A stretch of 64,000 nucleotides of DNA from an uncultured Bacteroidales bacterium. GTDB taxonomy: Bacteria > Bacteroidota > Bacteroidia > Bacteroidales > GWA2-32-17. Location: assembly GCA_964431135.1 (NCBI GenBank), contig CAYSIN010000005.1:245-64244 (forward strand), given 5' to 3'. The notes below the pieces were generated by a model. The model worked only from the letters and a program-made list of their open reading frames with translations, ran no database searches and was not told where the DNA came from. Position 1 is the first letter of the stretch, and every line of letters starts with the position of its first letter. This document shows positions 7,962 to 10,449 of this stretch, piece by piece. Both the position numbers and the translations under genes were made by a program.

Positions 7962-8897
7962 TTACACTATAAAAGTAGAACTGATAGATTGATAGTTGTA
8001 CACCTTATTAATAATATCGGCAAACAAATCGGCAATGGAAAGAATTTTAATTTTGGGTGATGTCTGCTTTAACGGAATTGAATCGGTAAATACCAGTTCA
8101 GTGATAGGTGATTTTTCAATCCTTTCGTAAGCATTTCCCGATAATACGGGATGTGTGGCAACTACGCGGACACTTTTTGCTCCTTTGTTCATCATCATTT
8201 CGGAAGCAATAGTAATAGTGCCCGCCGTATCAACCATATCATCCAAAATAATGACGTTCTTATTTTTTACTTCTCCAATCATGGAAATATGTTCAACCTG
8301 ATTGGCTTCTTTTCGCAATTTATAGCAGATAACCATATCGCAACCCAGAAAACGGGAATATGCATTGGCACGTTTGGAACCGCCCATATCGGGTGCTGCC
8401 ACTACCAGATTATCAAGATTTAATTGTTTGATATAAGGGACAAAGACGGCAGACGCATAAACATGGTCAACGGGTATATTGAAAAAGCCCTGTATCTGGT
8501 CGGCATGTAAATCCATCGTCATAATGCGGCTAAAGCCCGCCGTAGTCAATAAGTCAGCAACCACCTTTGCGCCGATTGAAACGCGAGGTTTATCTTTTCT
8601 GTCCTGTCTTGCCCATCCAAAATATGGGATGACGGCAATTATCTTGTGAGCAGATGCCCGTTTAGCAGCATCAGCCATTAACAGCAATTCCATTAAGTTG
8701 TCCACAGGTGGATACGTACTTTGAATGAGAAAAACATTGCATCCTCGTACTGTTTCTTCATACGAAGGTTGAAATTCACCATCGCTAAAAAAGGTTACCG
8801 AAGATTTTCCCAATGTAGTTCCAAATTTATCCGCAATTTTTTCGCCAATATTTTTTGATGTTCTTCCAGCAAAAAATTTTATCGGTGCTCTATGCAT
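7962..8897 (-). CDS. prs: Ribose-phosphate pyrophosphokinase
   Basis: FSDGE, YFGWARQDRK, DLHADQIQGFF, PDMGGSKRA, DDMVDTAGT, THPVLSG. Confidence 0.96.
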   Translation of the reverse strand: MHRAPIKFFAGRTSKNIGEKIADKFGTTLGKSSVTFFSDGEFQPSYEETVRGCNVFLIQSTYPPVDNLMELLLMADAAKRASAHKIIAVIPYFGWARQDRKDKPRVSIGAKVVADLLTTAGFSRIMTMDLHADQIQGFFNIPVDHVYASAVFVPYIKQLNLDNLVVAAPDMGGSKRANAYSRFLGCDMVICYKLRKEANQVEHISMIGEVKNKNVIILDDMVDTAGTITIASEMMMNKGAKSVRVVATHPVLSGNAYERIEKSPITELVFTDSIPLKQTSPKIKILSIADLFADIINKVYNYQSISSTFIV

Positions 8898-8938
8898 AAA
8901 TTTTTTTTTAATTGCTCAAAATTAACCATTATAATAAT

Positions 8939-8967
8939 AAAAAAAACTGTCTTGCGACAGTTTTTTT
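8939..8967 (-). terminator. Rho-independent terminator after thx
   Basis: A8-CTGTC-TTGC-GACAG-T7, 4 bp after the thx stop codon. Confidence 0.75.
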
Positions 8968-8970
8968 ATA

Positions 8971-9471
8971 TTATTTTTTTGTTTTAGCAGGTGCTTTTTT
9001 AGTTGTCTTTTTTGCTTCAGCCGTAGAAGTTTTTTTCTCTTTGTCTTTTACAGGTTTCGAAACGCTACTTTTAGTGGAAGATTTTTTTTCTGACACTTTT
9101 GTTTTAGCAGTAGTTTTTTTTGCTTCTGTTTTTGCTTCTGTTTTTGTTTTTGTTTTCTTTTCTATGGCTTTTTCTTTTTTGGCTGGAGTTGTTTTGATTA
9201 CATCCTTTTCTTTGGTTGCTGTCTTTTTGACTGTTTTTGGCTTTGGTTCTTTTATTTTTTGAACAGTTTCATTTACAACTGCAACCACAGTGTTCGTTTC
9301 AACTTCCATACTTGGAATTACAACAGGTTGAATTTCCTGTTTAAGCGGTTTAATCTCTTTTTCTTTTTTAGTCGGAATAAATGATGTATTATTTTTTTTG
9401 TGTGGACGACGAACACCATACGTTCCCAAAATAATTTTTCCACGACGTGATTTTTTGTCTCCTTTTCCCAT
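8971..9471 (-). CDS. thx: 30S ribosomal protein THX (bTHX) with a long Lys/Thr/Ala-rich C-terminal tail
   Basis: N-terminus MGKGDKKSRRGKIILGTYGVRRP matches the THX signature; the remaining ~140 aa are low complexity. Confidence 0.75.
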   Translation of the reverse strand: MGKGDKKSRRGKIILGTYGVRRPHKKNNTSFIPTKKEKEIKPLKQEIQPVVIPSMEVETNTVVAVVNETVQKIKEPKPKTVKKTATKEKDVIKTTPAKKEKAIEKKTKTKTEAKTEAKKTTAKTKVSEKKSSTKSSVSKPVKDKEKKTSTAEAKKTTKKAPAKTKK

Positions 9472-9489: not shown

Positions 9490-9924
9490 TTAATAAAAAT
9501 TTTTTAACTGAGCCGTTTCTATTTTTTCATTGTTTACAAAAACGTAAGGTATTTTAAAAGCCTGATTTAACACTAATATTACATTATTCATTGAATAACC
9601 GGGTTTACATGTTATTGTTACTTGCCTTGTAATATTATCGGTGAAGATTTTTGATACAGACATTTCAACAATACCTTTATATGCTTTAAAAACAGAAACG
9701 AACATGGCAGCATCTTCATCTTTGTTCAATCCTTTCACAAAAAACTGCATACTTTTTTGATTGCCTGTACTTACTATGATAGTATCGTTGGTGGTATAAA
9801 AAAACACCTCTACTTTACTAAAGTCAGGATTTTGTGCTAACGAAAGTACAGGAAATGCAAAAAATAAAAAACATGTTACTTGTTTGGAAAGAACTTTAAC
9901 AGATTCTGCCCAGCAGTTTAACAT
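9490..9924 (-). CDS. Hypothetical exported protein with a possible HMA/ferredoxin-like fold
   Basis: Signal-peptide-like segment ending SLAQ; FFVKGL...KGIVEMSV pattern; 2 bp from the upstream gene. Confidence 0.6.
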   Translation of the reverse strand: MLNCWAESVKVLSKQVTCFLFFAFPVLSLAQNPDFSKVEVFFYTTNDTIIVSTGNQKSMQFFVKGLNKDEDAAMFVSVFKAYKGIVEMSVSKIFTDNITRQVTITCKPGYSMNNVILVLNQAFKIPYVFVNNEKIETAQLKNFY

Positions 9925-10418: not shown

Positions 10419-10449
10419 CAAATATAATACTTTTTTTTGATTGTACAAA
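10419..10449 (-). promoter_or_regulatory. Bacteroidota primary sigma promoter for the 10391-9924-thx unit
   Basis: TTTG (10449-10446), 19-bp spacer, TATATTTG (10426-10419). Confidence 0.55.

Follow-up and report, generated by a model that had tools for sequence, protein, structure and literature searches.

Most descriptions of the ribosomal protein bTHX present it as a peptide of about 26 amino acids found in thermophiles. In the 64,000-nucleotide stretch of Bacteroidales DNA analyzed here (the window), a reverse-strand gene encodes such a peptide and then continues, in frame, for 140 lysine-rich residues. This raises the question of why a peptide that lies buried in rRNA should carry so long an extension, and of whether the extension serves a function, as the histone H1-like tail postulated in the sequence-only reading of this locus might, or has simply accumulated.

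A single bTHX gene with a coding tail

The features of the gene, in window coordinates, are as follows.

8971 to 9471, reverse strand: complete coding sequence of a bTHX protein with tail, 166 amino acids, an open reading frame from ATG to stop (stop codon, 8971 to 8973)
9394 to 9471, reverse strand: bTHX core, residues 1 to 26, MGKGDKKSRRGKIILGTYGVRRPHKK, matched by PF17070 and TIGR04560, both over the whole model
9334 to 9393, reverse strand: proximal linker, residues 27 to 46, with a hydrophobic patch, SFIP (residues 30 to 33); pLDDT, 70 to 74
9256 to 9333, reverse strand: V/I/E-rich middle segment, residues 47 to 72; net charge, -2; 42% V/I/L/M/F
8974 to 9255, reverse strand: polycationic K/T/A/E/S segment, residues 73 to 166; K, 37%; net charge, +24
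9117 to 9156, reverse strand: 12-bp tandem repeat found by Tandem Repeats Finder, 3.3 copies, encoding KTKTEAKTEAKK (residues ~106 to 119)
8940 to 8967, reverse strand: terminator-like hairpin with a T run, 3 nt past the stop codon

The first 26 residues scored 34.5 bits against Pfam PF17070 (Thx; cutoff, 29.7), with model positions 1 to 26 of 27 matched, and 51.9 bits against NCBIfam TIGR04560 (cutoff, 26), with positions 1 to 26 of 26 matched. A PDB search aligned them without gaps to Thermus thermophilus Thx chains in several hundred entries and returned no Bacteroidota chain with THX. The GKGD, GK, and YG motifs of Thermus Thx (e.g., PDB 1FJG chain V) are also found in this core, which keeps K3, D5, R9, and R10, the residues through which Thx contacts helices h41, h42, and h43 of the 16S rRNA (PMC11711686), and has Ile in place of the Thermus Trp14. 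Matched by both family models above their curated cutoffs, with a core that begins at the initiator methionine and a single gene dedicated to it, the protein is a member of the bTHX family. The stop-to-stop frame around it (172 amino acids) is only 6 codons longer than the open reading frame, so that the start is unambiguous and lacks an alternative upstream start.

The genome (2.9 Mb, 35% G+C, 98.5% complete) contains one match to TIGR04560 above the cutoff; the runner-up, at 15 bits, had an E value of 0.1. The profile search found no separate short copy, and the long-tailed protein is thus the only THX that the genome encodes. Any THX present in the ribosomes of this organism must therefore bear the tail, unless it is processed. 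The proposal that a THX core is fused to a basic tail of about 140 residues was borne out: the gene is the genome's single bTHX, with a full core and an in-frame, low-complexity, lysine-rich tail of 140 residues.

The tail is a genuine coding sequence, its open frame extending far beyond what chance would allow. The frame stayed open in only 2 of 20,000 mononucleotide shuffles of the tail DNA (31% G+C), a single substitution would turn 62 of the 140 tail codons into a stop codon, and open frames in the window average 17 codons. Codon use in the tail carries no special signal, with AAA making up 88% of lysine codons there versus 81% in the long open reading frames of the window, and the longest run of A in the tail DNA is 8 nt. 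That the fused frame is an artefact of misassembly, a frameshift, or a miscalled gene has a negligible probability, since the frame runs unbroken from ATG to stop and is then followed by the terminator-like hairpin (a 12-pair stem with 3 G-C pairs and a 4-nt loop, then a T-rich stretch), and since the same core-plus-tail architecture is shared by independent genomes and metagenome proteins numbering well over 100. An open reading frame on the opposite strand (8912 to 9262, forward; 116 amino acids, F/V/L rich), probably not a gene, overlaps the tail and is better regarded as a shadow of the poly-T, low-complexity complement of the lysine codons.

Composition of the tail and the comparison with histone H1

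The tail (residues 27 to 166) has a net charge of +24 and a pI of 10.1. Lysine accounts for 29% of its residues, followed by T (16%), E (11%), V (9%), A (8%), P (6%), and S (6%); R, G, H, Y, W, and C are absent, and one F is the sole aromatic residue. The two stretches first singled out as histone-like, KTEAKTEAKKTTAKTK and KKAPAKTKK, are both present. The tandem repeat within the polycationic segment had a score of 66 with 92% matches, and V/E-rich segments resembling residues 47 to 72 occupy the same position in relatives. In an AlphaFold2 model built from a 16-sequence alignment, the only predicted secondary structure was one helical turn at residues 6 to 9, and the mean pLDDT was 57, with the best values (70 to 74) at residues 21 to 40. 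The tail is thus predicted to be intrinsically disordered. Searches of the whole protein against Pfam and NCBIfam at E values of 1 or less returned Thx alone, besides two chance matches far below the cutoff, and domain searches of two long THX relatives likewise gave only chance, subthreshold matches in their tails.

The C-terminal tails of H1 histones are rich in K, A, and P. Like the H1 C-terminal domain and bacterial H1-like tails, the tail described here is lysine rich, arginine poor, disordered, and of low complexity, and it includes an occasional motif of the T-P-x-K-K kind, so that the description "histone H1-like" holds loosely for its composition. It does not hold for domain content: Pfam and NCBIfam detected neither a winged-helix globular domain nor an Hc1 domain in the protein, which accordingly is neither a linker histone nor an Hc1 protein. 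Measured against H1 tails as these are generally known, the THX tail has a comparable share of K but much more T, E, and V and less A and P, and it is attached to an rRNA-buried peptide.

A second role of the H1 kind, in which the tail would bind DNA or couple ribosomes to the nucleoid, or in which free protein would be nucleoid associated, is very unlikely. What speaks for it is compositional, namely the lysine richness and one TPAKK and one KKAPAK reminiscent of S/TPKK, together with the general tendency of polycationic disordered tails to bind any nucleic acid. Against it, the searches detected no DNA-binding domain, whether linker-histone, Hc1, HU, or other, the T/E/V-rich and A/P-poor tail differs from H1 C-terminal domains, the only recognizable domain is an rRNA-embedded peptide, and no nucleoid genes lie nearby. 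The DNA-binding, nucleoid, and modification-target roles floated earlier for the tail are pure speculation.

Distribution and lengths of bTHX tails

Genomes were surveyed with TIGR04560 in an even sample of the order and in a sample of the phylum outside the order; the lengths given below are those of the open frames holding THX, not of ATG-to-stop proteins.

Same order, even sample: THX in 135 of 301 genomes; 136 frames; median open frame, 106.5 amino acids; 77 frames of at least 100 amino acids, 26 of at least 150, and 14 of at least 172; maximum, 275
Phylum sample outside the order: THX in 77 of 400 genomes; 77 frames; median open frame, 51 amino acids; 4 frames of at least 100 amino acids, 2 of at least 150, and 2 of at least 172; maximum, 176

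Outside the order, THX homologues of Bacteroidota are generally short, as the sequence-only reading had stated. A tail of this length is not exceptional within the order: with 26 of 136 frames there reaching at least 150 amino acids and 14 at least 172, the tail is typical of its lineage and falls in the upper fifth for length, long but not extreme. Many families of the order include members with long tails. The sequence-only reading had also allowed for such tails being common and already characterized; the length survey shows them to be common, and no paper describing them was found among those that could be searched.

TIGR04560 had no match in 166 of the 301 genomes of the order, and a Bacteroides thetaiotaomicron genome used as a control had none at an E value of 0.001 or less. 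THX appears to be often lost in the order, or else missed in assemblies. Within the genus, one genome (97% complete; G001) had no match, and six others have one.

Across 38 loci of relatives and order samples, ATG-to-stop THX proteins ranged from 35 to 252 amino acids, and the tails of relatives measured from 9 to more than 220 residues. A protein-database search limited to lengths of 91 to 291 amino acids yielded 45 THX proteins with K/E/T/A/P-rich tails, which, where the source gives a name, are called "30S ribosomal protein THX/S31" and are mostly assigned to "Bacteroidales bacterium" metagenome-assembled genomes (MAGs); the named records in a species-level collection came from MAGs of uncultured Bacteroidales, Bacteroidota, "Lentimicrobiaceae," and "Rikenellaceae" and from one Winogradskyella. 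The THX proteins of relatives labeled Lentimicrobiaceae measure 99 to 162 amino acids. A set of 80 loci ranked by their match to the 166-amino-acid query favors long tails and was kept out of the frequency estimates. The protein described here groups with the long-tailed Bacteroidales THX, having the core followed by at least 70 amino acids of in-frame, K-rich, R-poor, net-positive, low-complexity sequence. The others of this kind (91 to 252 amino acids; "30S ribosomal protein THX" or "S31" in NCBI and JGI records) have the same architecture and tail composition and belong to the same order, but their tails cannot be aligned to this one. Long-tailed Bacteroidales THX proteins are thus annotated in sequence records but unstudied, and this gene is one fairly long example.

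Closer relatives reveal how readily the tail changes. Same-genus orthologues are only 71 to 75 amino acids long (open frames in six genomes, 71 to 88) and have the same order of segments, a basic linker, an acidic/hydrophobic stretch, and a basic end, but about 90 residues of the basic end (within residues 73 to 166) have no counterpart in them; it follows that this species lengthened the basic end of the tail. In genomes of the same family, THX reaches 142 to 231 amino acids, which, set against the 71 to 75 of the genus, indicates that tail length changes quickly. From the wide range of lengths and the short orthologues within the genus, most of the tail must be dispensable over short evolutionary times. 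Tandem peptide repeats recur in the tails of relatives, among them APVKEK/APVKEV units, KAETKPKT repeated 8 times, and a 22-residue unit repeated 5 times.

These observations suit an effectively neutral origin, in which the short K-rich C terminus that Bacteroidota THX typically has served as a seed, grew by replication slippage, and was tolerated because it points into solvent, with selection acting only against aggregation-prone or acidic compositions. Such an origin is somewhat unlikely but deserves serious consideration: tail length varies even within the genus (71 to 75 versus 166 amino acids), tails of different families cannot be aligned, tandem repeats are found in tails at both the DNA and the peptide level, the synteny and context of THX are not conserved beyond the genus, and similar tails occur on unrelated proteins of the same genome. 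The proteins concerned, together with one other ribosomal protein that bears an extension, are listed below by contig and position.

C8:47909-49351: enzyme-like protein of 480 amino acids, K/T/E-rich low-complexity tail or insert
C67:250-939: protein of 229 amino acids, K/T/E-rich low-complexity tail or insert
C18:1846-3222: FtsA-like protein, K/T/E-rich low-complexity tail or insert
C4:23850-26822: IF-2, K/T/E-rich low-complexity tail or insert
C105:1452-3458: protein of 668 amino acids, K/T/E-rich low-complexity tail or insert
C12:158-673: bL17, 171 amino acids, modest basic C-terminal extension

The occurrence of K/T-rich tails on unrelated proteins suggests a general tendency of the proteome rather than a function specific to THX. 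Comparably long tails were not found on the other ribosomal proteins of this genome, and the most lysine-rich 50-residue window among all of its open frames is that of THX.

In one relative of 252 amino acids (L017:820-1575, reverse strand), the K-rich tail is followed by about 100 nonrepetitive, helix-like residues (DIYQEKSELS...NIVKGIN). Pfam returned no match for this C-terminal part, which may represent an additional domain attached to a ribosomal peptide.

Signs of constraint on tail composition

Other properties of the tails count against neutral expansion. Frames of at least 100 amino acids have been kept open in 77 of the 136 cases from the order, even though one substitution suffices to turn a K or E codon into a stop codon. 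The mean composition of the tails at 38 loci is about 28% K, about 1% R, and 0.4% aromatic residues, so that lysine is used about 28-fold over arginine, and 33 of the 38 are net positive. Locus G+C content (25 to 49%) was correlated neither with tail length (Spearman coefficient, -0.03) nor with K fraction (+0.03; n = 38), and lysine richness and net positive charge are therefore not simply a product of AT mutational bias, a cause that we considered and found unsupported.

In close pairs of tails with unsaturated synonymous divergence, dN/dS ranged from 0.14 to 0.53 (e.g., L047/L056, 0.14; L057/L071, 0.14; L040/L092, 0.18; and L064/L084, 0.45), values that come from tails of other species and from low-complexity alignments, which raise their uncertainty. 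They show purifying selection on the tails of relatives and count against neutrality. Two consecutive hydrophobic residues occur at positions 27 to 40 in 48 of 83 long relatives; for positions 80 to 93, taken as a control, the count was 14 of 83.

The tails of 18 of 118 relatives, with total lengths of 96 to 164 amino acids, end in K[PAL]KK[EDGA]KK plus at most one residue (L041, L043, L047, L048, L053, L055 to L057, L066, L068, L071 to L073, L079, L080, L094, L100, and L109). The retention of this end across such a range of lengths is a further point against neutral expansion. Either these tails grow internally with their ends kept or the 18 relatives form one clade, as they probably do. As a universal C-terminal motif, the sequence was rejected, given its confinement to 18 of 118 relatives and its absence from the protein described here.

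Model for a ribosome-anchored tail

Thx lodges in a cavity of the 16S rRNA atop the head of the 30S subunit (PMC5694952). The Thermus protein stops at residue 26 or 27, whereas the Bacteroidales protein continues for 140 disordered residues; with the core ending where the Thermus protein ends, the tail must leave the rRNA pocket, in agreement with the earlier suggestion that a tail of this length would project from the ribosome. In our view, the tail is best explained, with a probability of roughly 55%, as a polycationic, disordered extension that is anchored in the ribosome at the 30S head and acts as an RNA tether or counter-ion. We infer that THX joins the ribosome with its tail intact and that the tail binds RNA. 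Residues 1 to 26 most likely fill the pocket known from Thermus and chloroplast ribosomes, which lies at the top of the head between h41, h42, and h43, and residues 27 onward would exit it, presumably towards the head surface. The hydrophobic patch of the linker may dock on neighboring head proteins, as the extension of chloroplast bTHXc does on uS13c or uS7c, with the V/E-rich part serving as a putative spacer. The polycation of about 95 residues could then lie on, or sweep across, the 30S head, whose surface is negatively charged, and RNA in its vicinity. In that position it would serve as a built-in counter-ion or RNA tether and help the head to fold and stay stable. Under this model, charge and composition would be constrained, and the exact sequence and length would be free to drift through tandem-repeat slippage. 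Counting against the model are the wide variation in tail length and the short orthologues within the genus, the similar tails on unrelated proteins of this genome, and the 166 of 301 genomes of the order in which THX had no match.

The closest parallel lies in plant organelles, where bTHX also consists of a THX core with a C-terminal extension (bTHXc/PSRP4, 46 amino acids when mature in spinach; the 136-amino-acid chain 7PKQ_u; and mitochondrial bS31m, 6XYW_Bt). The C-terminal extension of chloroplast THX emerges from the pocket and contacts uS13c (PMC5694952), and contact with uS7c has also been reported (bioRxiv 10.64898/2026.07.03.736309). Plants have a short, conserved extension that is partly ordered, whereas the Bacteroidales tail is 140 residues long, disordered, polycationic, and nonhomologous; the plant chains appeared in the PDB search with E values of 0.7 to 0.8 and with only the core covered. 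The plant bTHXc extension is thus a functional analogy, not a homologue.

The tail might instead be a pro-sequence or assembly aid, a chaperone-like solubilizer or RNA-folding helper that is cleaved once the 30S head has been assembled. Such a fate is compatible with variable tail lengths and with the short processed form that the sequence-only reading had allowed for, yet no conserved cleavage motif was seen at the core-tail junction, where residues 27 to 40 are variable, and the making and discarding of 140 residues for each ribosome would presumably be costly. We give it very little credence.

A more ambitious proposal builds on the anchored tail and treats the 100- to 250-residue tails as functional and as an adaptation of the Bacteroidales ribosome throughout the lineage. 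A tail anchored near uS13 and uS7 could extend as far as the mRNA path or the interface between the subunits, where it might recruit or hold the A-rich leaders lacking Shine-Dalgarno sequences that are typical of the phylum; alternatively, by binding RNA multivalently, it might cause ribosomes to cluster or hibernate. An adaptation of either sort is unlikely. If it were real, the behavior of ribosomes would hinge on how long a repeat tract is.

The anchored tail that we favor would have consequences of its own. If it stays on the ribosome, it would rank among the longest disordered extensions of bacterial ribosomal proteins when length is measured against that of the anchor, and would offer a natural system for examining the roles of lysine-rich disordered tails on ribonucleoprotein surfaces. 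Older papers confined bTHX to thermophiles or to Thermus, and the C-terminal extension of chloroplast bTHXc has been called "absent from bacteria" (bioRxiv 10.64898/2026.07.03.736309); a literature search found no description of bacterial THX extensions. The picture that emerges here is a different one, in which mesophilic and mostly uncultured Bacteroidales commonly possess a bTHX with 50 to 250 residues of polycationic disorder of conserved composition.

Genomic neighborhood

THX is flanked by prs, two small open reading frames with signal peptide-like N termini, and PorP/SprF, an arrangement common to same-genus loci only; because these neighbors are shared only within the genus, the context is uninformative about the function of THX. 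The two small open reading frames lie directly upstream, with gaps of 18 and 2 nt separating THX, orf144, and orf154.

9490 to 9924, reverse strand: orf144, 144 amino acids
9927 to 10391, reverse strand: orf154, 154 amino acids
10419 to 10426, ahead of orf154 and orf144: Bacteroidota-type -7 motif, TATATTTG

Neither small open reading frame had a Pfam match, and both also adjoin THX in the same-genus loci L006 and L007. They may be cotranscribed with THX, in a unit comprising the motif at 10419 to 10426, orf154, orf144, THX, and the terminator, an arrangement that is only suggestive; neither sigma-70 promoters nor the Bacteroidota -7 motif TAnnTTTG was enriched over shuffled sequence. The gene for ribose-phosphate pyrophosphokinase, prs (7962 to 8897, reverse strand), comes after the THX terminator and has a -7-like motif of its own, TAATTTTG, at 8917 to 8924 on the reverse strand, about 20 nt upstream of the prs start.
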